Of a stretch of 64,000 nt of DNA, positions 12,640 to 51,293 are shown in pieces. Position numbers and translations under genes: made by a program. The stretch covers positions 12,011 through 76,010 of the forward strand of contig CALMKJ010000156.1 in the NCBI GenBank assembly GCA_937867305.1, written 5' to 3'. Positions within the stretch are counted from its first letter, which is position 1. Every line of letters starts with the position of its first letter. The DNA is from an uncultured Ectothiorhodospiraceae bacterium (GTDB lineage: Bacteria > Pseudomonadota > Gammaproteobacteria > JAABTG01). The notes under the pieces were generated by a model that was given only the letters and a program-made list of their open reading frames with translations, had not been told where the DNA came from and did no database searches.

Positions 12640-12870
12640 GAACTCAATGTGGTGGGCGGGTCGGGCACTGGTCACCATGCGCAAACCACGGCACGGGCGA
12701 CCGGTGTTACGCCCTCCCCTGTGCCAGGTGGGCCGCGTCGGGTCGCCGACAACAAGAACGCACCCGGTCCGTCTGGGCGCTGACCGGGTGCGGCGAACAC
12801 GAACCCGACGAGGGCCCTTGCTACGCCGCCAGAGGGGCGACGCCGTCTAGCCCGTGTTCGCCTTTCCCTG
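12640..12870 (-). promoter_or_regulatory. 230-bp intergenic leader carrying a class-3 motif (TTTGCGCATGGTG, about 45 nt before the 12628 GTG) and two TGGCACAGGG(G) class-2-like copies with no ORF behind them
   Basis: Seen directly; possible regulatory hub or small-RNA promoter. Confidence 0.3.
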
Positions 12871-12925
12871 TGCCACCAGCCAGCACGCGGGCCTTCAACG
12901 CGCCGCCGAGAACCGGCGCGAAGCC

Positions 12926-13378
12926 TCAGTTGTTGGGGACCCCACGGTCCTCGGTGTGCCGGACGACCCGCATCTTCTTGGTTACGTTGCCGGTCGTGAA
13001 CTCCTCGACCTCGACCCACACCAGGACACGGTGACCGATCAGCGACTTCACCTTGCGGGCCATCGCCAGCCCCTCCGGGTTGTCGGTCCGCTCGGTCCGC
13101 ACCTGCTCGCACCCGGCCGGCACACCATCGGTGGCCCGGTCGGTGCCCGTGTGCAGCGTGATCACCCCACGGGTGCTCGACTGCTCCTTCTTCACGTCAC
13201 GCACGATGCCGGAGAAGACCTTGCACTTGCTGATCTGCTCGGCAGCCTTCGCCTGCGCGACCACGAAGCCGGTCATGCTGGTGGCGAAGTACGCGTCGAG
13301 CGCGGCGGGCAGCGCAGCGGCGACAGCGGCGGCGATCTGGTCGCCCTGGGCGACGTCGGCGGGGGTCTGGGTGCTCAT
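12926..13378 (-). CDS. hypothetical protein (150 aa)
   Basis: Internal ATG (MSTQTPADVAQGDQIAAAVAAAL...) of track ORF 12926..13648, preceded by a GAAGGAAG RBS; the upstream part of the ORF is Arg/Gly-rich. Confidence 0.45.
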   Translation of the reverse strand: MSTQTPADVAQGDQIAAAVAAALPAALDAYFATSMTGFVVAQAKAAEQISKCKVFSGIVRDVKKEQSSTRGVITLHTGTDRATDGVPAGCEQVRTERTDNPEGLAMARKVKSLIGHRVLVWVEVEEFTTGNVTKKMRVVRHTEDRGVPNN

Positions 13379-13413
13379 CTGGTTCTTCCTTCGGTGGTTG
13401 GGTTGGGTGGTGC

Positions 13414-15825
13414 TCAGCCGGTGACGGCCTGCGGGCGGGACGGGGCAGCGAGAACAGCCCACGGGGGCGTGGTCGGGGCGTCGGCCTCGTACAGCCGGTG
13501 CGCCGCCAACGCCAGCGTGCGGATGTGCTTGGTTCCCAGCGCCACCCACGCGTCCCACGCGGCGGCGTCCTGACCGAACGGCAGCGGGTGCGTCTCGATG
13601 AACGACCGCAGCAGGCCACGGAGCCGCATGTTCAGCCCGTTCATCCACGACGACGAACCGGACAGCTCGTGCTGGGTCGGGCGCAGCATCACCGCGAACG
13701 TCTGCGACAGACCGTCCAGCGCGTCCTTCGACAGCGCCACGTCGGCCTTCACGATCTCCTCGTAGGCCAGCGAGACCATCCCGAACACGGCGGTCGCCGC
13801 GAAGCTGTTGCCGTTCAAGAGTCCGCGCGACTCAGGCTCCCAAGCCTTGTCCTCGGAAAACACGTGCTCACTCATCATGGCTCCTACTGCGGCCTCGACC
13901 GCGACTGGTGGGGTGGAACTGACCTTGTTGTGTGCGGAACCGTCCGGTTCATGCACCGTGTCGGCCGCCGAACCGAAGTCCTCTTCGACATAAGTCGGCA
14001 CCTCGACCCGCAACGGGCGAGCCACCGGGATCCGGAAACTGCCTTCCGGTGCGGCGTTGCCGGTCCGGTCGGTCAGACCAGCGGCTTTCGCGGCCGGGCA
14101 TGTGTTCACCAACGGGCACCACCCGCACAGCGGACCCGTCTTCGTCGGGAACGACGCCTCGGACTCGAACCGTTTCAAGTCGGCCCACGCCACCTCGAAG
14201 CCGTCCAACGTCTTCGACATGTACGGCCTGCTGATTGCGGCGTCCCGCGACTTCCCGACCGCCGTGTAGTACAGCCGGGCCTTCACGGGGCGAACCCCGG
14301 TGTCGTTGAACAGCGCCTCGTCGTACAACCGCATCTGGTCGCCGTGGTCGTCGCCGTAGAACTTCATCTTGTCCCGGGGCGGCATCTTCCCGGTGTTGTG
14401 CGTCGGAACCATCGTGGGCCCGCACAGGTACAACGAGTCGAGTGCGTCGACCTGGATGCACTGCGTCGGCACCGGCTGAGCCAGGCGCATCGAAGTGATG
14501 GTCCGGTGCACGGGCACAAGAGCCGGTTCGGTTGCCGTACTGACCCCCGGCACTTCAAGCGGGATGACCCCGGTCGGGTAGAACGCCACCAGGTGACGGC
14601 GACCGCACGGTCGAACCATCGACACCCCGAGGCTGGCGACCAGCTCGACCACCAGGGCCATCAACGCTTCGTCGGTGGAGACGAACCCGGCACCACCGAA
14701 CTCCGCGTCCCAATGCCCGCGCGCGTCCATCAACCCTTGCAGCAGCGCGATCCGCTGGGTCCGGGAACCCCGCAGGTACAGGTTCCGGATCTCATCGTCC
14801 CCGCACACGTCCGGGACCACGTCGTCCACGGACGTGCCTGCGGACCCCAACCGGACCCCGGTCACCCGTGGGTCCAACGGCAGGTCGGCGTCCGGCAAGT
14901 CCAACGCGGAAGGGTTCGACACCGTGATGGTGCCGTACTCCCCGTCGTCGTGACGCCGGCACAGCATCTCGAACAGCGTGTCCGCGTCCACCACCGACGT
15001 CACCGGTACAGGCCCGGCGCCCCGGTCCTCGATCTGCCACAGGTGCACGTTGTCGCACACCACGCGGGCACCGTCGGAGAACACGATCTCGTAGCACGGG
15101 CGGTGGTGGACCTGAGACTTCAACACCACCTCGGTCGGGGTGCCGTCCGAGCCGAGCACCTTGTCGCCCACCTGCAGCTCCCCCATCGTCGACCAGCCGG
15201 TCGGCGTCGGGATGGGGGTGTCGAGGGCCAGACCCTTGTAGTCGACGATGGCGACCCCTTCGGACCCGTCCGGCAGCGTCACGTGGTCGAGACGGTCGAT
15301 GTACCCGACGAACGGGATGCCCCGCACCGCCGAGTTCGCGGTGAACCCGACCTCGATCGCCTTCACCTGGACGTGCCGCGGGTCTTCGATGTCCCACAGG
15401 CCAGCCATCCGTTGATGGACCAGCCCGTGCCAGTTGGCTCGTTTCGCCAGCGTGGCCGGGTCGCCGGCAGGCCACAGCCGAAGCTTGTGCGCCTCCAGCA
15501 GCCGCATCGCCTCGTCGAAGCTGCGCTTGAAGTACGGCAGGGCGAACAAGTCCTCGAAGATCTTGTGGACCGCGTCCCCCAACGGGGCGGCCGCCAACGG
15601 GTCCTCGTGCCGCGGCAGCAGCCGGTCGGCGGCCCACCGTGACGGGCACCCGCTCATCGCCTTCGCGGTCGACGGTGACAACGCGGACCGCGCCACGACC
15701 CGGATCGCCTCGTCGTTGAACATGAGACGGTCGCCGTCCCACGACGCGACCAGGCGCAGGTCCGGCTTCTCAGCCGACGACCCACAGGTAGGCGCAGGGG
15801 TAGCCGCATCGGTCGGGGTGTTCAC
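13414..15825 (-). CDS. Cas4/RecB-family PD-(D/E)xK exonuclease (Fe-S, Cys4) interrupted by an intein with a LAGLIDADG homing endonuclease
   Basis: Exteins carry an N-terminal Cys (MSGCPSRW), a VAIVDYKG...TGK nuclease motif split by the insertion, and a C-terminal CGWCPLVNTC (C-x2-C-x5-C). The insert runs from ...LALDTPIPTPTGW... through LYLRGSRTQRIALLQGLMDARGHWD (LAGLIDADG block) to ...LYLCGPTMVPTHN, followed by Thr at +1. It has no Cys or Ser at intein position 1, which is class-3-like. GTG start lies 6 nt after class-2 motif GTGGCACAGG. Confidence 0.6.
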   Translation of the reverse strand: MNTPTDAATPAPTCGSSAEKPDLRLVASWDGDRLMFNDEAIRVVARSALSPSTAKAMSGCPSRWAADRLLPRHEDPLAAAPLGDAVHKIFEDLFALPYFKRSFDEAMRLLEAHKLRLWPAGDPATLAKRANWHGLVHQRMAGLWDIEDPRHVQVKAIEVGFTANSAVRGIPFVGYIDRLDHVTLPDGSEGVAIVDYKGLALDTPIPTPTGWSTMGELQVGDKVLGSDGTPTEVVLKSQVHHRPCYEIVFSDGARVVCDNVHLWQIEDRGAGPVPVTSVVDADTLFEMLCRRHDDGEYGTITVSNPSALDLPDADLPLDPRVTGVRLGSAGTSVDDVVPDVCGDDEIRNLYLRGSRTQRIALLQGLMDARGHWDAEFGGAGFVSTDEALMALVVELVASLGVSMVRPCGRRHLVAFYPTGVIPLEVPGVSTATEPALVPVHRTITSMRLAQPVPTQCIQVDALDSLYLCGPTMVPTHNTGKMPPRDKMKFYGDDHGDQMRLYDEALFNDTGVRPVKARLYYTAVGKSRDAAISRPYMSKTLDGFEVAWADLKRFESEASFPTKTGPLCGWCPLVNTCPAAKAAGLTDRTGNAAPEGSFRIPVARPLRVEVPTYVEEDFGSAADTVHEPDGSAHNKVSSTPPVAVEAAVGAMMSEHVFSEDKAWEPESRGLLNGNSFAATAVFGMVSLAYEEIVKADVALSKDALDGLSQTFAVMLRPTQHELSGSSSWMNGLNMRLRGLLRSFIETHPLPFGQDAAAWDAWVALGTKHIRTLALAAHRLYEADAPTTPPWAVLAAPSRPQAVTG

Positions 15826-16414: not shown

Positions 16415-17422
16415 TCAGCTATCGACCCCGGTGATCCCGAAGTAGGTCTTCAGCACCTCCTGTGCCACCTGCTTCACCTCGGCGATCTTGCGGCGCACCG
16501 TCGGTGCTGCGATCCCGACGATGTCGGCGATGTCCGCGCTCGTCGGGGGCCGGTCGAACGACGCCGCCATGTCGGTGCCAAAGAACGCCTCGGCGACCTT
16601 CCCGTGCGACTCCGAGACCTGGTAGCAGCGCTCGATCGTCACCTTCACCAACAGGTCCCGCTCCGCCGAATGCAACACCCCGTCCTGGTCGTTCGGGTCC
16701 GGGGTGCACGACACCTGCTCGCCGTAACCGGCAGCCCCGTGCGTGCCGCGTTCGTCGTGCGGGTCCGACCGGGACTCCAAGTCCCGCAACTCCACCGCCG
16801 GCCCCGAGTTCATGACCTGGTAGTCCTCGACCGTGCACAGCATCCCTTGCCGGGCCGCGTCCTTGCGGTGGGCGCGCATCCGGCGGTTCGTCTCCTCCAC
16901 GACCTGCTCAGCGGTCGGGTCGCACACGCCTTCGACGAGCAACTGGTCGCGGGTCTGCCGCATCTGGTTGATCCGGCGCTTCAACGACACCTGGCGTGAC
17001 GCGGTGTTCATCCCGGCCGACGAGTCGACCCACACCCGGACCCGCGACTTGGCCCGGTACGACACCATCCCGGTGAACGAGGTGATCTCGTCGACGGTCA
17101 GCGTCCCGTCGCGGACGTCTTTGACGACCAGCAGGAACGCCTCGTTGACCAGCGACAGCACGTCGCCGCCGTGGGTGGTGCGGTCCAGCCGGTACGACAT
17201 GGCGATCCGGGTCGCGATCTTGCGCAGCTCCGGCTGCTGGGCACGGGCGAAGTCCTCCAAGATCGCGTCGCCTTCAGCCGGGGTGGCGGACGCGATCGCG
17301 GCCAGCCATTCGGTCGGTGCAGACGACCCTGCCAGGTCCGGGGCCGTCATGGGCACGAGCGTCGACTGCCACTCCGCGGGCGCGGGGGCCTCAGTCGCGT
17401 CGAGGCAGTCGTAGTCGGCCAT
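16415..17422 (-). CDS. sigma-70 family RNA polymerase sigma factor (about 335 aa, SigF/FliA-like size)
   Basis: Region-2-like (LSLVNEAFLLVVKDV...) and region-4 HTH (IADIVGIAAPTVRRKIAEVKQVAQEVL). Start placed at the ATG 2 nt after the stop of the mIHF-like gene (TGACCATG). Confidence 0.55.
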   Translation of the reverse strand: MADYDCLDATEAPAPAEWQSTLVPMTAPDLAGSSAPTEWLAAIASATPAEGDAILEDFARAQQPELRKIATRIAMSYRLDRTTHGGDVLSLVNEAFLLVVKDVRDGTLTVDEITSFTGMVSYRAKSRVRVWVDSSAGMNTASRQVSLKRRINQMRQTRDQLLVEGVCDPTAEQVVEETNRRMRAHRKDAARQGMLCTVEDYQVMNSGPAVELRDLESRSDPHDERGTHGAAGYGEQVSCTPDPNDQDGVLHSAERDLLVKVTIERCYQVSESHGKVAEAFFGTDMAASFDRPPTSADIADIVGIAAPTVRRKIAEVKQVAQEVLKTYFGITGVDS

Positions 17423-17424
17423 GG

Positions 17425-17931
17425 TCAACGGCCCTTCTGTGTCGTGGCGGTCGCAGGCCGCGGCGCTGAAGGGAAGCCGGGCCAAGGCACTGTGTGCGGC
17501 TTGGCGGCGTCCATCCAGGCGTACAGCCTTTTGGCCCCAGCCCGCGGGACGGTCAACCAGAGGATGTCCTTGTCACCGAGATCGTTCGGGGCCGAATCAA
17601 GTCTGACAGCCACCGCCGACAAGAACGCATCCGCGCGCACCCGGCCCACGTTCGGCTGGGCCAACACGAGTTGGTTCAGCTTGATGCGACGCAACGGCCC
17701 GCCCTCGGGACCCATCGCGGAGACCACCACGTCGAACGCGGTCACCTGCCCGGTTGCGACCATCAGCAGTGCCTCGGAGCGCGCTCGTTTCGCCTTCACC
17801 GACGCGCTACGAGCCGCAGTCGTGTCCTTCCCGAGCTGGCACACAGACGCGGTCCCCTGGTTCCCCTGACAAACTCCCGTGTCGGGGTGACCTGGCGCGC
17901 GAGCTTCGGTGGTAGTGACGGTGGTGTTCAT
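17425..17931 (-). CDS. mIHF-like (actinobacterial integration host factor) DNA-binding protein
   Basis: C-terminal block RRIKLNQLVLAQPNVGRVRADAFLSAVAVRL matches the mIHF pattern (K-V-S-A-LL-x-LP-x-VG-x-V-K-A); GAGGAGG RBS; class-3 motif 22 nt upstream. Confidence 0.5.
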   Translation of the reverse strand: MNTTVTTTEARAPGHPDTGVCQGNQGTASVCQLGKDTTAARSASVKAKRARSEALLMVATGQVTAFDVVVSAMGPEGGPLRRIKLNQLVLAQPNVGRVRADAFLSAVAVRLDSAPNDLGDKDILWLTVPRAGAKRLYAWMDAAKPHTVPWPGFPSAPRPATATTQKGR

Positions 17932-18078
17932 AGGTGCCGGCCTCCTCGGCCAGCACCATGCGCAAACCTAGTGCTACCCCAATCCGGCATAGTCTGATGC
18001 GCGGAAAGATAGTCATAACGGACTATTGAGCGTGGCGTGCTCTTCCTTTGCGTTTCCGTGTGGCCTGCGTCACACGGG

Positions 18079-19170
18079 TCAGAAACCGCCGGACAGCCAC
18101 CCGTCCGACCCGTCAGAGTCCTCATCGACGAAGTCGGAGTCGAAACCGTCCGACCTCGTCATCGACAGACACCCGCTCATCGGGTCCGGTTGCACCGACA
18201 ACGCCGCCGCCACCCGGTCCGTGGAGACCTTGTCCTTCGGGTACAGGTCCCGGACCGCAGCGACCACCGACTCCACGTCGCGCAAGTCCAGGTCACGGGC
18301 CACATCCCGGATCCTGCGCCCGATCCGCGGGTCACCGACCCGTTGCCGGATCGCCTCCGCCGCGTCGCGGCGAACCGCCCGGTTCACGTACCTCAACGGG
18401 TCAACCCGGCGCATCGACTCAGGCGTCAGAATCTTCTCCACGATCGCGTCCAGCTTCCCGATCCGGCCTTCGACCCCGTACAGGAAGTCGGTGATCACCG
18501 ACTCCAACGCCACCTCGTCCAACAGCAACCGGTCCGGCATCCCCTGGAACGCACACACCTCGTGCGACACCCCGAAGTGGGCGCGGCGCAACATCAACCG
18601 CACCCTCGGTGCCATCAACGACCGCAGCTCCCACCGGGCCATCTCGCCTTCCTCGGCGATGACGGTCAACCGTTGCCGCAGCACCCGCTCCGGCTCGGTC
18701 ACCACCGACGCGAACACCGGGACCCCGAACTCGTCCTTCTCGACCTGGTCCTCGAAGCCGACGTCGTCGAGGACGACCTTGCACACCCCGGACTCGTCGT
18801 GACCCATCGACAACGTCGACCAGACCAGCTCGGTGTTCTCGGTCAGCACCGCCAACGGCTCCGACCATTCCAGCCGGACCGGCATCGAGAGACGCTCACC
18901 GTTGCGCCCGTTGTCCTTACGCCCCACGTTGATCTTCGAGCACATCCACCCGAACGACTCCGGAACGAACAACCCGCCGGACACCGGCAGGTCACCCTCC
19001 TCGACGAGACGGGCCGCCAACCGGCCCACCACGATCCGGTGCAGCAGCTCGGTCAACGTCCACAACGACGCGTGCCTGCCGTTGACCGCCAACGCGGACA
19101 GGTTCTCGTCGTCCTCCTCGAGGACCCCAGGCTCGTCTAGGTCCAGGGCCTCGACAGGTGCGGTGGTCAT
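18079..19170 (-). CDS. hypothetical protein (363 aa)
   Basis: Track ORF with normal composition; ATGA overlap with the stop of the 19167..21236 gene. Confidence 0.5.
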   Translation of the reverse strand: MTTAPVEALDLDEPGVLEEDDENLSALAVNGRHASLWTLTELLHRIVVGRLAARLVEEGDLPVSGGLFVPESFGWMCSKINVGRKDNGRNGERLSMPVRLEWSEPLAVLTENTELVWSTLSMGHDESGVCKVVLDDVGFEDQVEKDEFGVPVFASVVTEPERVLRQRLTVIAEEGEMARWELRSLMAPRVRLMLRRAHFGVSHEVCAFQGMPDRLLLDEVALESVITDFLYGVEGRIGKLDAIVEKILTPESMRRVDPLRYVNRAVRRDAAEAIRQRVGDPRIGRRIRDVARDLDLRDVESVVAAVRDLYPKDKVSTDRVAAALSVQPDPMSGCLSMTRSDGFDSDFVDEDSDGSDGWLSGGF

Positions 19171-21236
19171 CCGCGTCCGCCGAGGCCGAAGAGCCGACGT
19201 CGTCGACGAGACGGCTGGTCCTGTTCCTCCTGGATCTGCTCAGGAACCTGGAGCCCCGGGAACACGTTGCCGAGCACCGCACCCATGAACTTGGCGAACT
19301 GCGGCACCTCGACCGGCAGGCCGCCGGCGTTCTGCCGCTCCGGGATGGCCGTATCGGCGTAGCAGACCCCCAGGAACACCGAGTGCTCGGAGATCGCGGC
19401 AGCCAAGCCGTCCTGGTAGAAGCTCAGGTTGTTCGGCACCCGGTTCAGGAACGAGAGCTGCCGTTCCCGAGGCACACCGTGCGCGGCGAACTTCTTGAGC
19501 CGCGACAGCGTGTTCGTCACCCCGGACGAGGACACGTCAGTTGAACACATGCCCCACGCGCCGGAGGCCAGCAACGGAAGCAAGAACCGGTCGACCATTC
19601 CGGAGGAGTCCTTCGCCTCCACGATCTGGGTGTCGATGACGACCAGGTCGCACATCGCTCGCGCGTCGGCGACCAGTCGCATGTACACCTCCGGGGTCAC
19701 CACGGACTCGTCGGCTAGGTGCGCCGGCGGTGCCGTGATGAGCCCGAACCGGAGCGGCGTCTGCTTCAGGTCACGCGCCTCGGTCAACGTGACCGGCGAG
19801 ATGAGCGTCTGCCGGATGTCGCCGGTGACCGCGTAGTTGTAGACCGACGGCAGCGACGCCATCCCGATGCGCAGGTAGGTGCGGATGTCGCCCTGGCCCA
19901 TGTTCGCGTCGATGAGGATGACCCGCAGGCCACGTTCGGCGGCGTGCTGAGCCAGAGAGCAGGACGCGGACGTCTTGCCGGTGCCACCTTTCGCGGCCCA
20001 ACTGACCACCACCTGGCCTTGGCCCTGGTCGGGCGAACCGGTGACCAGGTGACCGGTCCGGGACACGGGCACCAGCTCGCCGCCTGGGCTCTGCACGTAC
20101 GGGCCGTCTGTCGACACCCCGCTGTCGCGCGCCTCATGGAGCTGCTGCGTCGCGATAGCGGCGAACACGTCCTCGTCGGGCTCCGGCTCGGTCTCATCGA
20201 CCGGCTGGAGCGGCGGCGCGGTGAACACGGGCTCGACCGGAGAGGGTGCGACGGTGGGTGCCGGCTCCGGCTGAACCTCCTCGCCCGTCGGCGCGGTGAA
20301 CACGGGCACCTTGTCGGGCTCCGGCTCGTCCACGGCAGGCGCGACGAACACCGGGGTCTCCGGTACGGGCTCTACCCACGGGTCCTCGCCGACGGGCTCC
20401 GCCTCCACCGGCGGTGCGGTGAACACCGGCTCCGACTCCGGGTCAGGCTCGACCGGGGGCGCAACGAACACCGGGGTCTCCGGTGCTGGCTCGTCACCCC
20501 ACGGGTCTTCGTCGGAGTGGTGTTCCCCGGCGGCCGGAGCTGTGAACACCGGGTCGGCCGCCGGGGAAGTCTCTGAGTCGTCCTCGACCGGCGGTGCGAC
20601 GAACACCGGCTCCGGGTCGGACGGCACCTCGAACACCGGGTCGTCGACCGGCTCCGGGGCAGGCTGCACCGGCGGCGCGACGAACACCGGGTCGACGGCA
20701 GGAGGCTGGTCGCCCCACGGGTCGTCGACGACAGGCTCCGGCTGCGGTGCGGTCACCGGGACGTACGGGTGCTCCTCGACCGGGGTCGGAGGGGCAGGTG
20801 GAGCAGGAGGAGCCGGCTCCGGTTCGGCGTAGTCGCCGACGAACCCGTCGACCGTGCCCCGCTCGTCGACCTTGAACGCCGCGAACGACGGGTGGACCGC
20901 CCGGTTCGCCAGCGCGAGAAGCTCCGCCAGCGTCATCGGGACGAACGCCTCGATGACCGAGTCGTCGGCGAAGTCGACACCGTCACCGGTCACGGTGCGC
21001 ACCACCACGACCGTCGTCTCGTGCGAGAACCGGGTCGCCCAGGCGCGCAGGCCCGGCCACTTCGAGTCGGCGACGAAGATCGGGAACGACCCGAACTCGT
21101 CGGTGGCGGCCCGGATGTTGGTCGCGGTCGCCTTGTAGTCATCGGCGGTGATGACGGTGTACCCGGCCGCCGTCAAGGCGGCGGCCAGCGACGGGAGTCG
21201 CATCACGCCGATCATGTGGGCTGACGTTGTGTTCAC
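19167..21236 (-). CDS. TadZ/CpaE/ParA-family P-loop ATPase with an N-terminal receiver-like domain and a long Pro/Glu/Val-rich linker
   Basis: Deviant Walker A VVVSWAAKGGTGKTSAS... characteristic of the ParA/MinD/CpaE family. The N-terminal about 100 aa have a CheY-like alternating pattern, and about 200 aa of PEPV-type repeats follow. GTG start lies 6 nt after class-2 motif GTGGCACAGG. Confidence 0.55.
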   Translation of the reverse strand: MNTTSAHMIGVMRLPSLAAALTAAGYTVITADDYKATATNIRAATDEFGSFPIFVADSKWPGLRAWATRFSHETTVVVVRTVTGDGVDFADDSVIEAFVPMTLAELLALANRAVHPSFAAFKVDERGTVDGFVGDYAEPEPAPPAPPAPPTPVEEHPYVPVTAPQPEPVVDDPWGDQPPAVDPVFVAPPVQPAPEPVDDPVFEVPSDPEPVFVAPPVEDDSETSPAADPVFTAPAAGEHHSDEDPWGDEPAPETPVFVAPPVEPDPESEPVFTAPPVEAEPVGEDPWVEPVPETPVFVAPAVDEPEPDKVPVFTAPTGEEVQPEPAPTVAPSPVEPVFTAPPLQPVDETEPEPDEDVFAAIATQQLHEARDSGVSTDGPYVQSPGGELVPVSRTGHLVTGSPDQGQGQVVVSWAAKGGTGKTSASCSLAQHAAERGLRVILIDANMGQGDIRTYLRIGMASLPSVYNYAVTGDIRQTLISPVTLTEARDLKQTPLRFGLITAPPAHLADESVVTPEVYMRLVADARAMCDLVVIDTQIVEAKDSSGMVDRFLLPLLASGAWGMCSTDVSSSGVTNTLSRLKKFAAHGVPRERQLSFLNRVPNNLSFYQDGLAAAISEHSVFLGVCYADTAIPERQNAGGLPVEVPQFAKFMGAVLGNVFPGLQVPEQIQEEQDQPSRRRRRLFGLGGRG

Positions 21237-21322
21237 GCCGTCCCTGTGCCACACCCCGTCCACGAGGTGGCCAGAAACGATGGTGCGGAGGTAAAACCGC
21301 AGGTCAGAGCCGGTTCAGGAGG

Positions 21323-22067: not shown

Positions 22068-23036
22068 CTACTCGTCGTCGTCATCCTCGAGGTACGCGTC
22101 GCCGGCCAGGTCCCGGTAGGCGTCCGCCGGGATGTGGCTCAACCCGCGCAGGCTCGACTCCGTCGCGATCGGCTTGCCGGTGTTCACCCGGTCCGCCTTG
22201 GACATCCACTCGAACCCGACCGTGTGCGCGAACCCGTCATCGTCGCCACCCAGGTACTGGCGCCGGCGATGCACCAGCCACTGCACCGCCTGGCCCGCGG
22301 TCTTCAACAGCGACTCCCCGACCGTGTCGGTCGTGGCCGAGCTCAGGAAGGCCAGCATCAGGTGGTGGCACACCTCGGACAGCACGAACTGCATGGTCCG
22401 GGCGTCAGCGGACGCGAACCCGACGAGTGCCGCGGACAACGGGGCCAGGTTGACCGTCAACGACGCCATCTCCCGTGACGCGGACGGGTCGACCACATCG
22501 AGCGGCACCAGGTCGAGCGCGTCCGTGCGAGTACCGAACACTCGAGGCTGATGGCCGGGCAGCCCGACGATAGTCGCGCCGGTGTCCTCGGGCAACGGAG
22601 CCGCCCCCGCCCACACGAGCTTGCGGTCCGGGTCGCCGGACGGATGGTCCGAAGCCACCTGGTCCAGGTCGATGGTCGCCGACAAGCACGTCCACGGGTC
22701 GTCGCGAGGCAGGCTGCCGGACAGGTCGGTGAGCAGGCCGGCGAAGTACGCGCACGCCCAGTCACGGTTGCGGTTGATGAACGCCGCCATCGCCTGGTCG
22801 GTCTGCGACCTGTCGGCGGTACGCAGCAGCGGTTCGCTCAACGTCACGACCCAACGAGCCACCTCGACCCTGCGGTCGGCCGGCTGCCCGGGACCGGGGA
22901 CCGCTGAGAGCCGTGGACGTGGCACGTCTTTCACCGGCTCCGTGACGAGCGGCTGGGTCACCATGAGTCCTCCCGTGGATGTGCCCTCACCGGGGGGACG
23001 GTTTCCAGGTTCGTCGTGTTGCTCGTCGTTGCTCAT
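22068..23036 (-). CDS. hypothetical protein (about 322 aa)
   Basis: Internal ATG (MSNDEQHDEPGN...) of track ORF 22068..23345, preceded by GGTGCACG and a 7-bp hairpin (CCCACCC-GAAC-GGGTGGG); the upstream part of the ORF is low-complexity. Confidence 0.45.
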   Translation of the reverse strand: MSNDEQHDEPGNRPPGEGTSTGGLMVTQPLVTEPVKDVPRPRLSAVPGPGQPADRRVEVARWVVTLSEPLLRTADRSQTDQAMAAFINRNRDWACAYFAGLLTDLSGSLPRDDPWTCLSATIDLDQVASDHPSGDPDRKLVWAGAAPLPEDTGATIVGLPGHQPRVFGTRTDALDLVPLDVVDPSASREMASLTVNLAPLSAALVGFASADARTMQFVLSEVCHHLMLAFLSSATTDTVGESLLKTAGQAVQWLVHRRRQYLGGDDDGFAHTVGFEWMSKADRVNTGKPIATESSLRGLSHIPADAYRDLAGDAYLEDDDDE

Positions 23037-23459
23037 CGTGCACCCACCCGAACGGGTGGGTTGGATCCGTGACCGGCCGCCGACGTCCCGGCAACGGGTG
23101 TCGAATGTGGCACCTTCTGTCCCTCCAGTGGCCCTGACGGATGCCTTGCGAGGCAAGCTCATGGCGGGATGGTTGTCTGTCGTTTCGCTGACCGAGTGAC
23201 CTTCGTGGGTCCGAGCCCGGAGGCCACACGGTGCACGGGAGCATACTCCGGTCCGCGGTCCGCGGTCCGCCGGGAGTGGTCCGCTGGTTTGGTGTGGCGC
23301 GTCGCACCCGATCCGGTCGTGAGGTGTAAACAGACGCAAACGCAAGCAAACGCACGCATCTGTACGTAACTGGTCTCAACCACACACAAGACGATGCGAA
23401 CGTGGTCAGCCGGGGTCTACCGGGGTGCTCCTCCGCCAAAGTCAGATGAGGTCTCGACG

Positions 23460-23890
23460 GTGCTCGTGGCCAACTCCGTGCTGCTTTGCCACTTTGCCAC
23501 GATTGGCCCGACCGAAGTGGCGAACAGCTCCAAGCCCCTGACCTGCGGAAACAGTCCCCAGACGGGGTCGTTTTGCCAGTCTTGCCAGTTTGCCACCCGG
23601 TGGGGGATACACATATGAGGGGGAGGTATATACCTGCACCTGTGGGTATACACCTATGAGACCCCATACGTACTACTACCTCTACCTAAAGTGGTAAGAG
23701 ATCTCTACATACCTACTAAAAGGGCCTCTGACCTGCGGAAACGTGTTTGCCACTTTTTTCGGCCGTTCGTGACAAAGTGGCAAGATCCGGGGTGCTGAGC
23801 GTAAAGAACAGCCCAGAAACCGGGGGTTCTTGCCACGAACCGTTCTCGCTCGTGGCAAGACCCGGCCACCCGACTGGTGTGTGGTGGCAC
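23460..23890. repeat. putative replication origin / divergent control region: multiple direct and inverted TTGCCAC repeats, duplicated GACCTGCGGAAAC, and a locally AT-rich segment with GGTATA(T/C)ACC repeats
   Basis: tttgccactttgccacg, ttttgccagtcttgccagtttgccac, gtttgccactttttt/gacaaagtggcaaga (inverted), and cttgccacgaaccgttctcgctcgtggcaag (inverted). A relatively AT-rich segment (about 23600..23740) is unusual for this high-GC window. The region lies between divergent operons, directly upstream of the primase-helicase gene. Confidence 0.4.
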
Positions 23891-23899
23891 AGGGTGAAC

Positions 23900-36019: not shown

Positions 36020-36035
36020 CCGGCACAGGGAAGGC

Positions 36036-39989: not shown

Positions 39990-40540
39990 CGATTCCGAAC
40001 GACGACACCCCGGTGGTCGCTGACGTGTGTACGGGTGACGTGGTCGCCGAATGGTGGGGGTTGTACCGCGGTGACGTGCGGGCCCGCTTGGGTGACATGA
40101 CTCGCGACCACGGGTTGGCGGACGACTTGACCGTGGAGACGTTCGTGCGGCTGATCCGGCATCTGCGCTTGGGGCGTCCGACCCCGGACAACCCGAAGGC
40201 GTGGCTGCGGGTCACGTCCCGGCGGCTGCTGATCGACCATCTGCGCAGGTCGGCGGTGCGCGCTGAGGAGCCGCGGGCCGACATGCCGGTCATGGTGTCG
40301 TTCTCCGACTTCGACGCCGTGGCTCGTTCGGAGGAGGCGCGTGCGTGGCTCGATACACTCGACCCGAGACAGCGCACGATCATGGAGCTGCGCGACTTCC
40401 ACGACCTTTCGACCGCCGAAGTGGCCGGCATCTTGGGGATGACGGAGCAGGCGGTTCGGTCGGCCCGCCACAAGGCGGTGGTCCATCTGCGTGGGCGAGG
40501 TGCCCCGCACCGTGACGTTGCCGAGGAGGCGAGCGCGTGA
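39986..40540 (+). CDS. ECF-type sigma-70 family sigma factor
   Basis: Region 2 (DLTVETFVRLIRHLRLGRPTPDNPKAWLRVTSRRLLIDHLRR) and region 4 (LDPRQRTIMELRDFHDLSTAEVAGILGMTEQAVRSARHKA); ATGA overlap with the upstream gene. Confidence 0.6.
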   Translation: MTIPNDDTPVVADVCTGDVVAEWWGLYRGDVRARLGDMTRDHGLADDLTVETFVRLIRHLRLGRPTPDNPKAWLRVTSRRLLIDHLRRSAVRAEEPRADMPVMVSFSDFDAVARSEEARAWLDTLDPRQRTIMELRDFHDLSTAEVAGILGMTEQAVRSARHKAVVHLRGRGAPHRDVAEEASA

Positions 40541-40908
40541 ACACGTTGCCGGTGGTGGTCTCTGTCCCGTTGGCTTTGTTGATGGCGGCGTCGGTGACCT
40601 GGGTGATGGCGGAGTCGTTGCGCCGCACCCACGCCCGCGGTACCCGTGGCCGGTTCGTGTGGGCTTCGGTGGAACGCCCCACCAGGTACCCGGCGATCGC
40701 GTACCTGCTCGTGTCGGCGGTGTTGAACGCCCGCGTGTATGAGGACTGGGTGATGTTCCTCCTCAACTGCATGGGGGTGGGTCTTCAGGTGGCGTTGTTG
40801 CAGGAGAAGAGGCGTGATGGTGAGGATGATGACTTCTGGACGGGGTTCAGTGACAAGCTGGCTGCACTGTTCGGCCACCAGGTGGCGCAGGGTCGGGTGA
40901 AGTCATGA
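40537..40908 (+). CDS. membrane protein translationally coupled to the ECF sigma gene; candidate anti-sigma factor
   Basis: GTGA overlap with the sigma stop; two TM helices. The anti-sigma role is inferred from the standard ECF sigma / anti-sigma gene arrangement. Confidence 0.4.
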   Translation: MNTLPVVVSVPLALLMAASVTWVMAESLRRTHARGTRGRFVWASVERPTRYPAIAYLLVSAVLNARVYEDWVMFLLNCMGVGLQVALLQEKRRDGEDDDFWTGFSDKLAALFGHQVAQGRVKS

Positions 40909-41602: not shown

Positions 41603-41649
41603 ACCTGTTCTGTGTGCGGGGCCGGCTGTTGCGTGCACCTTGCTCTGGT

Positions 41650-43597: not shown

Positions 43598-44234
43598 TCA
43601 TCGGAGGAGTGGGTCGAGCCGGCCGGCGAGGGCTTTCGTCATGGACGACCTGACCCCGCCGGGGCCTTTCACTTCGTCGCGCCACCCGGTCCACGTCCAG
43701 GTACGGAACTCGTCGAACGTGTCGGCTCGTCCGGCGTTGACCTGCCGGTGGGCCGTCTCCCGGTTCCGGGTGTCGAGTTCGGCGGTGAGCCGTTCCCAGG
43801 CGACGGTCCGGTTCTGGTGCTGGGACCGTTCTTCGGTGGCGGTGACGACGATGCCGGTCGGCAGGTGGGTCAGCCGGACCGCGGAGTCGGTCTTGTTGCG
43901 GTGTTGCCCGCCGGCGCCGGACGCCCGGTACGTGTCGATTCGGACCTCTCGTTTGTCCAGGTGCACGGGGACCGGGGTGCGGTCGTCGTCGAAGAAGACG
44001 ACGGTGACCAGGGAGGAGTGGCGACGTCCGCGTTTCTCGGTGTCGGGTACCCGTTGGACACGGTGCGACCCGGCGAGCGCACGGTAGGCGGGGTCAAAGA
44101 CGGTGGAGGTGGAACGCGCCACCCTCGAACCGGGGCGTGGCCCGGGCGTGCTTGCCGATCGCGTCGGCCAGTTCTTGTGCGAACGCGGCAGCGTCCGCTC
44201 CACCCTCACCGGGGTGGATCTCCATGCGGGGCAT
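43598..44234 (-). CDS. peptide-chain release factor homologue (GGQ domain; lacks RF domain 1, PrfH/RF2-like) encoded in two frames joined at a CTT TGA C +1 frameshift site
   Basis: Frame A (44234 down to about 44094): [46 protein letters not shown], then stop. Frame B continues as [16 protein letters not shown]...RRHSSLVTV...[41 protein letters not shown]... to 43598. The junction heptamer CTTTGAC equals the prfB shift site. GAAGGGAGGG RBS and class-2 motif upstream. Confidence 0.5.
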
Positions 44235-44296
44235 GATGCCCTCCCTTCGTTGTCGTCTCCTGCCTGTGCCACCACCGTGTGACCGGGTGGCTGAGG

Positions 44297-46280: not shown

Positions 46281-46312
46281 TTGTCTGTGTGCGGGGCCGG
46301 CCGGTTCGTGCA
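46281..46312 (-). promoter_or_regulatory. class-1 bipartite motif (sense: GGTGCACGAACCGGCCGGCCCCGCACACAG) 8 nt upstream of the 45783..46277 start; an identical 30-mer recurs at about 46551..46582
   Basis: Exact 30-nt duplicate within 300 bp; same architecture as at least 16 other copies in the window. Confidence 0.45.
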
Positions 46313-46333
46313 CCGGTTCGGCGGGCTGAACCG

Positions 46334-46410: not shown

Positions 46411-46942
46411 CCTGCGCGGCCACGGAGCGAGTTCCCCACGAGGGGTCGGCGTGGGTGCCGTCGAGCTGTGCGGACTCGGCGCGCGTACGTCGCGCCTCAT
46501 CCTTGCAGGCTCGCTCTGCAAGTTCTGGTTAGTCGGATCGCGGTGCGTTCACGTTCAACCTGTGTGCGGGGCCGGCCGGTTCGTGCACCGGTCCGGCACA
46601 CGCAGGCTTGTCACCCAAGCGCGACTGGCTCCGGCGGACGCCGTTCCCATCCGGGTCGCCGCGGCGCGTTGAGCCGCTTCCCTGCCTCGAGGAGGACCCC
46701 GCCCCACACACCCCATTCCTGCCGTTGGAGCCCGAGTTGCAGGCATACGAGCCGGGCGGGGCAGGCGACGCAGTACGACTTCGCGTTGGCAAGCTCGATG
46801 ACGTTGTCGGGGTCGAAGATGCGCGGGTCTGCCCCCACACACGCCCATTCGAGGGAACGGTCGTGTGGCGTCGGGTGTTGTGACGCGATCTGGTGCGCTT
46901 TCGTGGCCATGCTGACGTTCACCTCCTTCGGGTTTGCGGGTT

Positions 46943-47015
46943 GTACGCCATCGGGGACTCGAACCCCGAGCCCTCGGATTAAAAGTCCGCTGCTCTACCC
47001 ATTGAGCTAATGGCG
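46943..47015 (-). tRNA. tRNA-Lys: tRNA-Lys (anticodon UUU)
   Basis: Reverse complement reads GCGCCAT TA GCTC AATGGGTA GAGC A GCGGA CTTTTAA TCCGA GGGCT CGGGG TTCGAGT CCCCG ATGGCGT A. It has a canonical cloverleaf with U33, anticodon UUU, A37, a TPsiC loop and discriminator A. A class-1 motif lies 20 nt upstream of the 5' end, with a class-2 motif further upstream. Coordinates are +/-1. Confidence 0.75.
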
Positions 47016-47028
47016 CGTGTTGACACCT

Positions 47029-47066
47029 TGATGGTGTGCGGGGTGCCCCGTCGCGTGCACCCGAAC
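47029..47066 (-). promoter_or_regulatory. class-1 motif (GGTGCACG-N12-CCCCGCACACC) 20 nt upstream of the tRNA-Lys 5' end
   Basis: Shows that the motif also precedes non-coding genes, so it behaves as a promoter rather than a translation signal. Confidence 0.45.
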
Positions 47067-47457
47067 CAGACCTGTGCCACCACCGGGTGGCCACGTGGAA
47101 GAAGGGGCGTGGTGGCTGTTCCCGCAACCGGGTGCAGTCCCTTTCGAGGCCCGCTCCGGCACGGCCGCTAAGCCGTACCGGTCAGCCCACCACTGGCGCA
47201 CATCCTTCGCCTTGCCGAGTTGTTCGTCCTCGCTTCACCCGCCGGTGAAGTCTGGTCCGCTCGGTCGCGACGCCATCTGTGCGCCGCACCCCGGATCGGG
47301 TCCGGGTACTGGTTCCGGCTGCGTACCGGGCCTCCACCAGCAGGCGCTCCGACGAGTCGGACCGGGATGTTGAGTCCCGGCGTGCTTTCTCCCGCGCACG
47401 GCTACGGCCTCCGCCTAGTTCCCCGGTTGCGAACCGGTTCTGCATGAGGTGACGCAG

Positions 47458-47530: not shown

Positions 47531-47632
47531 TTCAACAGGTACTGCGTGCGGCGGCTCGGGGACCACCTTTGCTGCCGTACAACCTACCTGTGTGCGGGAA
47601 CTCCCGGTTCGTGCACCGTTACGCTGCCGGTC

Positions 47633-49741: not shown

Positions 49742-49770
49742 CCGGGGTGACGAGGAGAAGGAGCGTGGCC

Positions 49771-50334
49771 ATGAGTGTGCGGCGAGGGGATCTCGGGCAA
49801 CCAGGCAACAAGGGCTGGTTCGCCTCGTACGCCGCACCCGAACCGACCGGTGTCGACCTGGTCGACGACTCCTCCCTGTTCGCTGACCCGGAGTCGTTGA
49901 CCCCGGACGAGGCGTTCGACATGGTCTGCGACCCGGACCTGATCGACCGGTACACGCTCGGCGACTGTGCGGTCCTGGCTGACGCGGTCGCACGCCGCAA
50001 CGGATGGGGCGTCGTGGTCGTGGGCCGGCTCGAGGAGAGCGAATGGGGCGGTGACGTCGAGTACGAGGTCGAGACGCTGATCCACGCCTGGGCACGGCGC
50101 CCTGACGGTGCCCTCGTCGACATTCGGGGCGTGCACCCGCCGGATGTCGCGGAACGCCGTGCCGCCGACTGGGGTGTGGATGTGCACACGTACACCACGG
50201 CAGACGACCACGCCGCCCAATGGGACCCCGACCAGTGGGTCGACGACGACGAGGACACGGAGGTGGCTCGACTGGTCGCCGGGCTCGTGTCCCGGTTCGG
50301 GGCCGTGTACGAGGCCGGGCACGTCGAAGAATGA
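49771..50334 (+). CDS. hypothetical protein (187 aa)
   Basis: Internal ATG of track ORF 49375..50334 with a strong GAGGAGAAGGAG RBS. Confidence 0.5.
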   Translation: MSVRRGDLGQPGNKGWFASYAAPEPTGVDLVDDSSLFADPESLTPDEAFDMVCDPDLIDRYTLGDCAVLADAVARRNGWGVVVVGRLEESEWGGDVEYEVETLIHAWARRPDGALVDIRGVHPPDVAERRAADWGVDVHTYTTADDHAAQWDPDQWVDDDEDTEVARLVAGLVSRFGAVYEAGHVEE

Positions 50335-50369
50335 CCCGGTGTTCCCGGTGTGGTGGCACAGGAACAGAC

Positions 50370-51293
50370 ATGAAGCGTTTCCTGCCTGCCCTCCTGGCCG
50401 TCTACGCCCTCACCTTGACCGGGTGCGGGGACGACGAGCCGGGGACGACGACCGTGACGTTGCCGTCTGTGACCGTGGCGCCGACCGTCGAGCCGAGCCT
50501 GCTGGACTTGGACGGCTCCGCGTCTGCGTCGCCGACCGACCCGGCCGAGACGGAGACTGAAGCTTCCGGGTCGACCGACCTGGACGCCCAGGTGCTCGTG
50601 GACGCACTCGTTGACACCCGCACCGACACCGACGGCGACCGGGTGTGGCTGGGTGCCCGGCACGGGGAGAAGGCCGCCCGTGCACTCGGGGTCTCGTTGA
50701 GCCCCGGCAACAGCGCCCTGCTGGTGGCTGACGTGGACGGGCTGCGCTTCGTGTGCGTGGAGGCCGGCGAGCAGGCCGGGTACACGTTCGTGACCGCGAC
50801 CGAGGACGCGGAGGCGTTCCGCACCGGCGAAGGCGGTTGCCCCGAGGCTGACATCGAGGCGGTTCGTTCACTGGCCGACTTGTCGTCGAGGGTCGCCGAG
50901 GCGAAGACGGACGCGAAGGAAGCCCGGCAGGCGCAGAAGGCGGCCGAAGCCCGGCAGACCCGCAAGGCGGAGCGCCGAAAGGTGGTCGAAGAGCTGGAAG
51001 CCGCGGAGGCGTTGGAGGTCGCGGTGTCCTCGGACGCCCGTATGGTCGGCGCCCTGTTGGCGTTGGACCTGCGCGACGCGAACCAGGTGCCGACTGTGGG
51101 GTCCAACCTGGCCGGCCGGGTCACCAACATGCTCTCCATGTACGGGCTCAGCCTGGCCGGCGACAACAGCCTCGGGTACGCGAAGGCGGTGCGCGCCGGT
51201 TTCGCTGTGTGTGTGGAAGCCGGGGACGAGGGGCCGTCGGCGAGCTTCACCACTGGGAACAGCCGGCTGGTGGCCAGCGAAGCGGCCTGCTGA
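50370..51293 (+). CDS. lipoprotein (lipobox LTLTGC), Ala/Lys/Glu-rich C-terminal region
   Basis: MKRFLPALLAVYALTLTGCGDDEP signal peptide plus lipobox; ATG 6 nt after class-2 motif GTGGTGGCACAGG. Confidence 0.55.
   Translation: MKRFLPALLAVYALTLTGCGDDEPGTTTVTLPSVTVAPTVEPSLLDLDGSASASPTDPAETETEASGSTDLDAQVLVDALVDTRTDTDGDRVWLGARHGEKAARALGVSLSPGNSALLVADVDGLRFVCVEAGEQAGYTFVTATEDAEAFRTGEGGCPEADIEAVRSLADLSSRVAEAKTDAKEARQAQKAAEARQTRKAERRKVVEELEAAEALEVAVSSDARMVGALLALDLRDANQVPTVGSNLAGRVTNMLSMYGLSLAGDNSLGYAKAVRAGFAVCVEAGDEGPSASFTTGNSRLVASEAAC

Follow-up and report, generated by a model that had tools for sequence, protein, structure and literature searches.

Distribution of the class-2 box

The window, the whole 64,000-nt stretch of DNA that was analyzed, carries genes for a primase-helicase, a ParA/CbiA-like ATPase, a RecB-like nuclease and an FtsK-like protein, the last overlapping a gene for an ECF-type sigma factor. 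Ahead of these genes and several others stands a short repeated sequence, the class-2 box GTGGTGGCACAGG, with its core GGCACAGG. The copies and the genes to which they belong are as follows.

23881–23893, plus strand: class-2 box, exact copy of GTGGTGGCACAGG and proposed –10 region; ATG 23900, which opens the primase-helicase gene, follows after 6 nt
23865–23870, plus strand: –35-like block GCCACC, 15 nt 5′ of GGCACAGG; the iteron inverted repeat TTGCCACGA...TCGTGGCAA flanks it
23900–27112, plus strand: primase-helicase-like replication gene, 1070 aa, predicted to be leaderless
21243–21255, minus strand: class-2 box GGTGTGGCACAGG; GTG 21236, which opens the ParA/CbiA-like ATPase gene, follows after 6 nt, and GCCACC is 15 nt upstream (21266–21271)
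19167–21236, minus strand: ParA/CbiA-like ATPase gene, 689 aa
15832–15844, minus strand: class-2 box CGGGTGGCACAGG; GTG 15825, which opens the PD-(D/E)XK (RecB-like) nuclease gene (13414–15825), follows after 6 nt
36022–36029, plus strand: class-2 core CGGCACAGG; ATG 36036, which opens the FtsK-like gene, follows after 6 nt
36036–39989, plus strand: FtsK/SpoIIIE-like gene, 1317 aa, heading an operon that contains the ECF sigma gene
39986–40540, plus strand: ECF-type sigma factor gene, in ATGA overlap with the FtsK-like stop codon; Pfam matches r2 9e-12, r4 3.6e-13, ECF 8e-6
40537–40908: membrane-protein gene, downstream of the ECF sigma gene; its product may be an anti-sigma factor
50350–50362, plus strand: class-2 box, exact copy, 7 nt before ATG 50370 of a lipoprotein gene (MKRFLPALLAVYALTLTGCG)
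6306–6313, minus strand: class-2 core, 6 nt before ATG 6299, which overlaps the upstream stop codon (ATGA)
5377–6299, minus strand: DUF4406/dGTP-diphosphohydrolase-like gene, frameshifted, opened by ATG 6299
44263–44275, minus strand: class-2 box, exact copy, with GCCACC 15 nt upstream (44286–44291); followed by a 28-nt leader with its own Shine-Dalgarno (SD) sequence GAAGGGAGGG and ATG 44234 of an RF2-like gene
47071–47083, minus strand: class-2 box, exact copy, 54 nt upstream of tRNA-Lys (46943–47016), with a class-1 box (47034–47041) between
12867–12879, minus strand: class-2 box CTGGTGGCACAGG, first of three tandem promoter-like boxes upstream of the gene starting at 12628 and of VirB4-like transfer genes
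12718–12725, minus strand: class-2 core, second tandem box, with GACCCGAC at –35 spacing; a class-3 box comes next at 12675–12683
1648–1660, minus strand: class-2 box, exact copy, with a 38-nt leader to a 16-codon ORF that overlaps (ATGA) an 81-aa membrane-protein gene starting at 1562
16459–16471, minus strand: class-2-like copy inside the 3′ end of the gene at 16415–17428, 55 nt before ATG 16403; either a possible internal promoter or a match by chance
61332–61339, plus strand: copy of GGCACAGG within a coding region; probably a chance match

Counting confirmed that the repeated GTGGTGGCACAGG box is real. Five exact copies were observed in the window (23881 and 50350 on the plus strand; 1648, 44263 and 47071 on the minus strand) against 0.01 expected, and none of 100 shuffles reached five. 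With up to two mismatches there are 14 copies where 4.5 are expected, and the core is found 13 times against an expectation of 3.7; all 13 core copies point in the same direction as the local genes and 12 of them lie at gene 5′ ends. Every copy that the annotation listed was recovered, those at 15832(–), 21243(–), 36022(+), 12718(–) and 12867(–) among them, and the exact copy at 1648–1660(–) and the cores at 6306(–), 16459(–) and 61332(+) are additional to its list. Six copies stand 6–7 nt ahead of the start codons of strongly coding ORFs; of those at 44263, 47071, 1648, 12718, 12867, 16459 and 61332, none adjoins a start codon. Expressed as the pattern GGCACAG-N6-8-RTG, there are six occurrences in the window compared to 1.2 expected; counted from GGCACAG, the distance to the start of these six genes is N7(–8). 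The copy ahead of the FtsK-like gene lies 2 nt past the stop codon of the upstream NERD gene, and corrects the start of the FtsK-like gene to 36036 from the 36111 of the annotation pipeline; the start codons of the L003 ParA-like and L047 FtsK-like genes are likewise shifted.

Conservation of the box among relatives

Orthologues of the boxed genes carry the same sequence in the same place. Primase-helicase orthologues, at 42–69% identity, have GGCACAG at one and the same offset, 7–8 nt before the start, in 7/7 cases (GGCATAG with N8 in L044), and it lies N7–8 before the conserved M..RSRSRS N-terminus in 4/4 FtsK-like orthologues. The ParA-like orthologues of close relatives have the box 7–8 nt before the start in 3/3 cases, and ParA-like orthologues with a box are present in L003, L044, L006, L011, L019, L026 and pACHL01. 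The box is retained at the same genes in relatives of just 30–69% identity, and the spacer sequence between box and start is variable among orthologues. The conserved unit in these relatives is GGCACAG, and family-wide GCA[C/T]AG, rather than the whole 13-mer; the 3′ CAGG[G/A], which the first-pass annotation had taken as SD-like, is not what relatives keep.

Variants of the box are GCACAG, GCATAG and GGACACTGT. Some 25 actinobacterial elements at a greater distance, the megaplasmid pACHL01 included, usually have GCATAG. In about 30 elements, whose orders include Micrococcales and Propionibacteriales, there are 47 distinct sites of the form GCA[C/T]AG-N6-9-ATG/GTG close to starts, at a spacing of N7–8 and rarely 6 or 9. 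Hosts named for the family are Nocardioides, Arthrobacter, Pseudarthrobacter, Curtobacterium and others. In the 193 of 427 kb of pACHL01 that were scanned, 5 of 42 GCATAG copies were start-proximal, compared to 0.45% for permuted 6-mers; in its backbone stretch, 6 of 8 copies lie ahead of RefSeq-annotated starts (ParA-like, primase, nuclease, two helicase and methylase genes), and the nuclease orthologue reads GCATAG-N7-ATG. On pCPAA3, the box lies ahead of the first tRNA in a 9-tRNA array. Searches of phage and plasmid collections found no near-identical DNA, PHROG searches gave no structural matches to support a phage identity, and we found no literature on promoters of these plasmids. At the sequence level, the putative regulon is shared by a family of megaplasmids and large conjugative elements in Actinomycetota.

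Promoter-like geometry and the alternatives to it

A second block accompanies the box. GCCACC is located exactly 15 nt upstream of the core at 21243, 23886 and 44263, i.e., 17 nt before CACAGG, and this fixed spacing reproduces a –35/–10 geometry. The counterpart of this block in L044 is GACCGCC-N15, and the family consensus is GACACCCGT at the same spacing, with information peaks (c.cCcGt) at –20 to –14 from GCAYAG. Conservation of the –35-like block is moderate, and its spacing deviates at the tRNA-Lys (47071) and lipoprotein (50355) sites. An element at the –10 position, with its 3′ end 6–8 nt from the start codon, was found at six window genes and 47 family sites, and one at the –35 position, about 17 bp upstream of the –10 hexamer, at three window sites.

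In leaderless promoters of Actinomycetota, the SigA –10 element TANNNT ends about 6–7 nt before the start codon, which is the transcription start. The box sites are like these in having a –10-position element at –13 to –7 from ATG/GTG with an A at –11 and without a Shine-Dalgarno sequence, and a –35-position block about 17 nt upstream. They differ in that the hexamer, CACAGG or CATAGN, lacks T at –7, that GTGGTGG just upstream is also conserved, and that the box is confined to one mobile-element family and a specific gene set. T is found at the sixth position of the hexamer in none of the 47 sites, and a housekeeping SigA promoter (TANNNT, A –11, T –7) was rejected on that ground. No consensus sigma-70 promoter was found in 29 kb, and no alternative TANNNT –10 element is present at the leaderless-distance sites. 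We know of no sigma consensus, ECF types with AAC/CGT included, that the CACAGG/CATAGN hexamer matches.

Most likely, the box forms the core of a promoter of a special kind, which would start transcription directly at the start codons of genes for replication, partition and DNA handling in a large actinobacterial plasmid family. In its specific form, as the –10 of a non-canonical bipartite sigma-70-family promoter giving leaderless mRNAs for a replication/partition regulon, we consider this reading probable. The box would comprise the –10 region and the bases immediately upstream of it, in a promoter of the form GCCACC - N17 - CACAGG - N6 - A/GTG in this element and roughly GACACCCGTG - N12 - GCA[C/T]AG - N7-8 - A/GTG across the family. 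RNA polymerase would start at the start codon or at most 1–2 nt away, so that the primase-helicase, ParA-like, RecB-like nuclease, FtsK-like/ECF-sigma, lipoprotein and DUF4406-like genes would be expressed as leaderless mRNAs; placed farther upstream, the same promoter would serve the leadered RF2-like gene, the tRNA gene and the transfer-gene cluster. The regulon so defined would be one of replication, partition and DNA metabolism. We infer promoter function and leaderless transcripts from geometry alone. Against a promoter, a fixed distance to the start codon is equally expected of a translation signal.

We consider it unlikely that the box is instead an operator, to which a DNA-binding regulator encoded by the element would bind as an activator or, as at the L5 stoperators, as a repressor, and which would lie over an otherwise unremarkable promoter. 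The L5 stoperator consensus is GGTGGMTGTCAAG, a 13-bp asymmetric repressor-binding site. Stoperators of L5 and cluster A share with the box that they are asymmetric 13-mers oriented along transcription, sit in short intergenic gaps and begin with GGTGG; in addition, the primase promoter lies within element-specific iteron inverted repeats, where binding of a regulator is plausible, and the conserved hexamer is unlike a SigA –10. However, stoperators are bound by a phage repressor and have no fixed distance to a start, whereas the box has a fixed distance and a conserved core of 6–7 nt. An operator would not need the 7–8 nt start distance that is kept at about 47 sites in several orders, the leaderless-distance sites have no alternative TANNNT element, 29 kb contain no consensus sigma-70 promoter, and family-wide it is only the short GCAYAG core that is kept, paired with a further block spaced as in a promoter. 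The ECF sigma aside, we detected no HTH protein of repressor type in the window, and a scan of the small window proteins for regulators gave no matches. A stoperator of the L5 type itself was rejected, as it shares only GGTGG(C) with the box and no repressor-like protein was detected in the window.

We assign a small probability to a signal acting in translation from the 5′ UTR, namely a ribosome-binding sequence or enhancer of an unusual kind, or else an operator recognized by an RNA-binding regulator. Six to eight nt before a start is the usual position of a ribosome-binding site, this distance is kept across orthologues, and since the FtsK-like box comes 2 nt after the NERD stop codon, read-through transcripts would contain it. 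There is also a precedent for start-associated repeats in actinobacterial mobile elements in the SAS of cluster K mycobacteriophages, which have an AGGAG SD core and a proposed role in translation (PMC3203893). SAS and ESAS are, like the box, 13-bp asymmetric repeats in one orientation, a few nt before a subset of starts, in an actinobacterial mobile element and sometimes with upstream repeats present (PMC3203893). The box was nonetheless rejected as a SAS of the GGGATAGGAGCCC type, which has an AGGAG core and stands 3–7 nt before the starts of protein genes only: its sequence differs and lacks AGGAG, it is found also ahead of tRNAs and leadered genes, and it has a partner block at –35 spacing.

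The first-pass annotation had the 3′ end of the motif double as an SD-like sequence, and this is not supported by the pairing or by the relatives. Pairing with the anti-SD does not exceed background, the mean duplex energy being –6.8 kcal/mol and that of random sequence –4.9 ± 2.8, and both the G of CAGG and the spacer are variable, the G being replaced in L001 (GGCACAGcacaggcGTG) and L003 (GGCACAGcagagttGTG); a Shine-Dalgarno function was rejected on these grounds. The boxes ahead of tRNA genes, and those standing 28–54 nt ahead of targets with a leader and an SD of their own, do not suit a translation signal either. A shared RNA hairpin was not found at the boxes (z-scores –1.85 to +1.26), and Rfam searches returned tRNA only, giving no known RNA element at the boxes or in the 12640–12880 leader. 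The GCCACC-GGTGGC hairpin, which can pair at 3–4 sites, was rejected because it folds no more stably than shuffles; a translation signal would leave the conserved upstream block without a role, and the constant 15 nt that separates GCCACC from the core at three sites is more readily explained by a DNA element than by a stem. The lack of a conserved G or SD pairing and of a hairpin, the tRNA and leadered targets and the block at –35 spacing together argue for a promoter acting at the DNA level. Between the separate regulon and the translational operator that the first-pass annotation had offered, the regulon is favored by a gene set distinct from that of class 1 and by boxes at the same genes in relatives, and the translational operator is not supported.

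There is next to no chance of a sigma-54 (–24/–12) promoter, for which GTGGCACAGG includes the consensus –24 element TGGCAC: the –12 element of TGGCAC-N5-TTGC is missing, with no TTGC/GC 5 nt downstream in any copy, the family variant GCATAG lacks GG, the start site would lie inside the coding region, and neither a bacterial enhancer-binding protein nor rpoN was seen in the window. To our knowledge, sigma-54 is absent from Actinomycetota.

Candidate readers of the box and a possible wider promoter programme

The element's own ECF sigma factor is the leading candidate for reading the putative class-2 promoter. Its gene overlaps or abuts the class-2-headed FtsK-like gene, translationally coupled downstream of it, at 4/4 loci, and the NERD/FtsK-like/ECF module is kept in L046–L048. 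This candidacy is by inference only, and the link between ECF factor and box is weak family-wide, because the close clade of this ECF sigma is narrow (9 metagenomic homologues) and the 10 kb around the primase genes of the distant relatives that use GCATAG showed no ECF homologue. A host alternative sigma factor, or a sigma-like protein that the element encodes, would be just as plausible a reader. Promoters of ECF sigma factors have a consensus AAC core at –35 and CGT core at –10; an ECF-type promoter in that sense was rejected, the blocks here being GCCACC/GACACCCGTG and GCAYAG. A second sigma factor adjoining the primase gene was also considered and rejected: the L003 protein in this position is a genuine r2/r4 sigma and that of pACHL01 an HTH protein with weak sigma r3/r4-like matches, whereas the window protein (22068–23345) has no detectable domain and resembles neither of them.

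A horizontally transferable ECF sigma with a self-contained regulon has a precedent in SCO3450 of Genomic Island 6 of S. coelicolor (bioRxiv 10.1101/247056). As in that system, a mobile ECF sigma gene is found here inside the regulon together with a repeated bipartite promoter-like motif. The motif here, however, is unlike AAC/CG-type ECF promoters, the boxes stand directly at start codons, there are two or three motif classes side by side, and the sigma-motif link is putative and finds no support outside the close clade.

Class-2 boxes are outnumbered by those of class 1, GTGCAC-N13-CCGCACAC-N9-ATG, which are clearly bipartite (11 exact copies against 0.05 expected), separate from the class-2 regulon and present ahead of both tRNAs. 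Their CA[C/T]A core (CACA) is at –12 to –9, the same position as in class 2. We raise only tentatively the possibility that this widespread megaplasmid/conjugative-element family has its own transcription programme, in which the GCAYAG class is read by an element-encoded sigma or sigma-like factor, in this clade the FtsK-linked ECF, and controls replication and partition. Such a programme would have two or three promoter classes with a common CA[C/T]A core at –12 to –9, and its promoters would abut start codons, so that about one half of the genes would be expressed without a leader; the GCAYAG class, driving replication and partition, would be an orthogonal, portable replication-control circuit.

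The box provides a testable regulatory code for a large family of actinobacterial conjugative elements and megaplasmids, nearly all of whose genes carry the annotation ‘hypothetical’. It marks the genes of the putative replication/partition regulon and probable transcript starts, and it points to an origin region. If an element-encoded sigma factor reads the box, this would be an example of a dedicated sigma factor controlling plasmid replication, and would provide a compact orthogonal promoter/sigma pair for high-GC hosts.

Copies of the class-2 box in the window

As judged from its sequence, the window (68% G+C) belongs to a large conjugative, plasmid-like element from an actinobacterium of Nocardioides type, because homologues of its 1070-aa primase-helicase-like protein are found in Nocardioides and many Micrococcales, and also on megaplasmids (375-608 kb) from Pseudarthrobacter, Arthrobacter, Paenarthrobacter and Curtobacterium. 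Deposited phages and plasmids gave no near-identical DNA match to the window, and no matches to phage structural proteins were seen in it. Genes run leftward from ~23.3 kb to position 1 and rightward at 23.9-41.3 kb and 47.6-64 kb, with a block of mixed direction between that holds two tRNA genes. The recognisable products are:

2294-4738 (-), ThyX, the gene split by an intein with HNH and HTH domains
13414-15825 (-), PD-(D/E)XK nuclease
39986-40540 (+), ECF-type sigma factor, one
Elsewhere: VirB4-like ATPase; TrwB-like coupling protein; two FtsK-like ATPases; ParA/CbiA-like ATPase; ArdC-like protein; dGTP-diphosphohydrolase-like protein; RF2-like protein

The nuclease gene encodes ~800 aa and gives a match to the first half of the domain only, as would fit an intein insertion.

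The class-2 box, a 13-mer, GTGGTGGCACAGG, is present in five exact copies (0.01 expected) and its core, GGCACAGG, in 13 (3.7 expected). Every copy named in the first-pass annotation was found, and there are others at 1648-1660(-), 6306(-), 16459(-) and 61332(+). All 13 copies are co-oriented with the local genes and 12 of the 13 lie at gene 5' ends. Six are placed 6-7 nt 5' of real gene starts (15825, 21236, 23900, 36036, 50370 and 6299). ATG 6299 shares ATGA with the preceding stop codon and begins a conserved YLSGPMTG N-terminus; the gene itself carries a frameshift in this assembly. Other copies stand farther from their targets:

44263, 28 nt ahead of the RF2-like gene, which has a leader with a good SD
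47071, 54 nt ahead of tRNA-Lys
1648, 38 nt ahead of a 16-codon ORF
12718 and 12867, a tandem pair ahead of the gene starting at 12628

Some of these genes are unusual in themselves. The gene at 5377-6299(-), DUF4406/dATP-dGTP diphosphohydrolase-like, opens at ATG 6299 (MTTNPAAAPLPARHHGIDTVYLSGPMTG*) and continues in another frame from ~6216; the candidate explanations are a programmed frameshift, a pseudogene and a mistake in the assembly. The 16-codon ORF (1559-1609(-), MTHTDHTSLTWTGAAA) shares ATGA with the first codon of an 81-aa membrane-protein gene (1317-1562(-)); the overlap makes it a possible leader peptide, translationally coupled to that gene. The RF2-like gene, 43598-44234(-), has RF-1 and PCRF domains in two frames that break at ...CAC CGT CTT TGA C, where CUU UGA C is the canonical +1 programmed-frameshift site of prfB. 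Its predicted protein is short (~250 aa) and without the N-terminal domain; the counterpart on pACHL01, a related megaplasmid of P. chlorophenolicus A6 (NC_011879.1), is annotated as peptidyl-tRNA hydrolase.

Conservation in relatives

Among seven primase-helicase orthologues (proteins 42-69% identical), the last 25 nt before the start share only GGCACAG at -14..-8, with GGCATAG 1 nt farther from the start in the relative L044. The 7-nt spacer and the G of 'CAGG' vary (GGCACAGcacaggcGTG in L001, GGCACAGcagagttGTG in L003). The same pattern, conserved GGCACAG with a free spacer, was seen for four FtsK-like orthologues, and in the window, L003 and L044 the ParA-like gene likewise keeps the box. 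The conserved N-terminus M..RSRSRS of the FtsK-like orthologues sets the window start at ATG 36036, not at the 36111 of the source pipeline. Pipeline starts also appear wrong in L003 (6743 for 6776) and L047 (3077 for 2993); box position and conserved N-termini shift the three 11-28 codons upstream.

Distant relatives (30-38% identical; Micrococcales and other orders) carry GCATAG-N7-9-ATG/GTG, a few with GCACAG in place of GCATAG, ahead of primase and divergent ParA-like genes, giving 47 distinct start-proximal sites (37 ATG, 10 GTG) in ~30 elements. In a 43-kb backbone stretch of pACHL01, 6 of 8 GCATAG copies lie 7-9 nt ahead of RefSeq-annotated starts, and the genes behind GCATAG encode a ParA-like ATPase, the primase-helicase, a PD-(D/E)XK nuclease, two helicases and a DNA methyltransferase. 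By a mechanical criterion, 5 of 42 copies in the 193 kb scanned were start-proximal, all five within this stretch, compared with 0.45% for 179 permuted 6-mers; none of the copies in pACHL01 1-150000 was. That latter region encodes SecY, SecE, SecG, signal peptidase I, Thg1, Dut and Lsr2, with a likely tRNA-array gap at 27.3-32.7 kb; such a set is unusually 'cellular' for a plasmid. In L027 and L028 (Enteractinococcus, Yaniella; about 9870-9890), CCGGACACTGT-N6-ATG rather than GCAYAG stands ahead of the primase gene. CCGGACACTGT recurs 5-8 times per 23 kb and seems to have taken the place of the promoter box in this clade.

Proposed promoter geometry and alternative readings

Alignment of sites on the class-2 box revealed a second, weaker block upstream. 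At 21243, 23886 and 44263 it reads GCCACC, at exactly 15 nt from the box, and further window sites have GGCCGTC, GGCCGGC or GGCGACC there; relatives have GACCGCC-N15 (L044) or, in many Micrococcales elements, GACACCCGTG-N12. Counted from the start codon, the partner block is at about -36..-27 and GCAYAG at -13..-8. Taken as hexamers, GCCACC and CACAGG are set 17 bp apart with 6 nt to the start codon, the layout of a sigma-70-family promoter that begins transcription at the start codon itself.

That the same sites are operators bound by a regulator protein is improbable, as this reading leaves the fixed distance to the start codon across orders unexplained and class-2 sites offer no ordinary -10. 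The first-pass annotation had proposed that CAGG[G/A] doubles as an SD, or that the box is a translational operator. Neither idea held up, nor did a translation signal like SAS, the start-associated sequences of cluster K mycobacteriophages (PMC3203893). Duplex energy of the 18 nt before class-2 starts with the 16S 3' end averaged -6.8 kcal/mol, at the 23rd percentile of a background of -4.9 +/- 2.8 (class-1 starts averaged -2.0); 11 class-2 regions folded no better than shuffles and had no common structure; tRNA-Lys has the box ahead of it, and two GCATAG copies stand before the first tRNA in the nine-tRNA array of the Curtobacterium plasmid pCPAA3; and the RF2-like gene has the box in addition to its separate leader and SD. 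A sigma-54 promoter was rejected, since TGGCAC resembles a -24 element but there is no -12 element.

Two further start-proximal classes were compared. The class-1 box, the most abundant repeat of the window, is plainly bipartite, GTGCAC-N13-CCGCACAC-N9-ATG (11 exact copies, 0.05 expected; ~30 copies of CCGCACAC), and puts CACA at -12..-9, the same position as in class-2. Copies stand ahead of both tRNA genes and of at least 16 start codons that have hardly any SD. Relatives from Tersicoccus, Sinomonas and Kocuria are likewise enriched in the box, and its pACHL01 equivalent is CCGCACACAT-N7-ATG. Of the third box, TTTGCGCATGGTG-N6-ATG, there are seven copies, among them those 6 nt upstream of ATGs 30557 and 35220; L046 (9016) and L048 (98) keep it ahead of the orthologous small gene that lies 5' of NERD. 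Because its CATGGT resembles the actinobacterial TANNNT -10, it may be a host-type promoter class.

Class-1 examples, (+): 29108-29134, 61779-61805
Class-1 examples, (-): 41612-41638, 46287-46313, 46562-46588, 47034-47060, 47590-47616
TTTGCGCATGGTG copies, (-): 1086-1094, 12675-12683, 17956-17964
TTTGCGCATGGTG copies, (+): 27315-27323, 30540-30548, 35203-35211, 55589-55597

Candidate readers and the regulon

No transcription protein other than the ECF sigma was recognised in the window. The gene for it overlaps the class-2-headed FtsK-like gene at the stop codon of the latter, and the module NERD/FtsK-like/ECF sigma/small protein is kept in L046-L048, as would be typical of an autoregulated ECF sigma. 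There is precedent for a transferable ECF sigma with a self-contained regulon. Against this link, the class-2 box is unlike known ECF promoters, the close clade of this sigma is narrow, and none of the distant GCATAG-using elements showed a homologue near its primase gene; moreover, at the primase-adjacent position L003 has a different, genuine sigma gene, itself behind GGCACAG, and pACHL01 an HTH protein with weak sigma-like hits. The link is thus weak and the ECF sigma a candidate reader of the box; a host alternative sigma is another possible one. Within 39986-40908(+), the ECF gene is followed, stop and start overlapping, by a gene for a 123-aa predicted membrane protein, absent from the L046 module, that may be an anti-sigma factor.

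The proposed primase promoter sits within element-specific iteron inverted repeats (TTGCCACGA...TCGTGGCAA) that adjoin an AT-rich, iteron-rich origin-like region, an arrangement that suggests extra control by an iteron-binding protein. This region, 23460-23865, upstream of the primase-helicase gene, contains 10 or more TTTGCCAC iterons in direct and inverted orientation, together with an AT-rich block at 23600-23720 and a pair of CTCTGACCTGCGGAAAC copies. L001 and L003 likewise have CTCTGACCTGCGGAAAC ahead of their primase genes; the iterons there differ (CTCGCCAG and TTGGCACT).

We propose that the class-2 box is the -10 region, without TANNNT, of a dedicated promoter class, where RNA polymerase with a sigma other than canonical SigA would contact the GCCACC/GACACCCGTG and GCAYAG blocks and begin transcription at or just before the start codon, yielding leaderless mRNAs. 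The separate regulon first suggested for these genes was confirmed. It would comprise the primase-helicase gene for replication, the ParA-like gene for partition, the nuclease and FtsK-like translocase genes for DNA processing and, in this element, the lipoprotein, nucleotide-metabolism and RF2-like genes and tRNA-Lys, with the transfer-gene cluster joined via the tandem copies. The feature would best be treated as a new promoter class, one whose -10/-35 is non-canonical and whose layout is leaderless, in a conserved mobile-element regulon.
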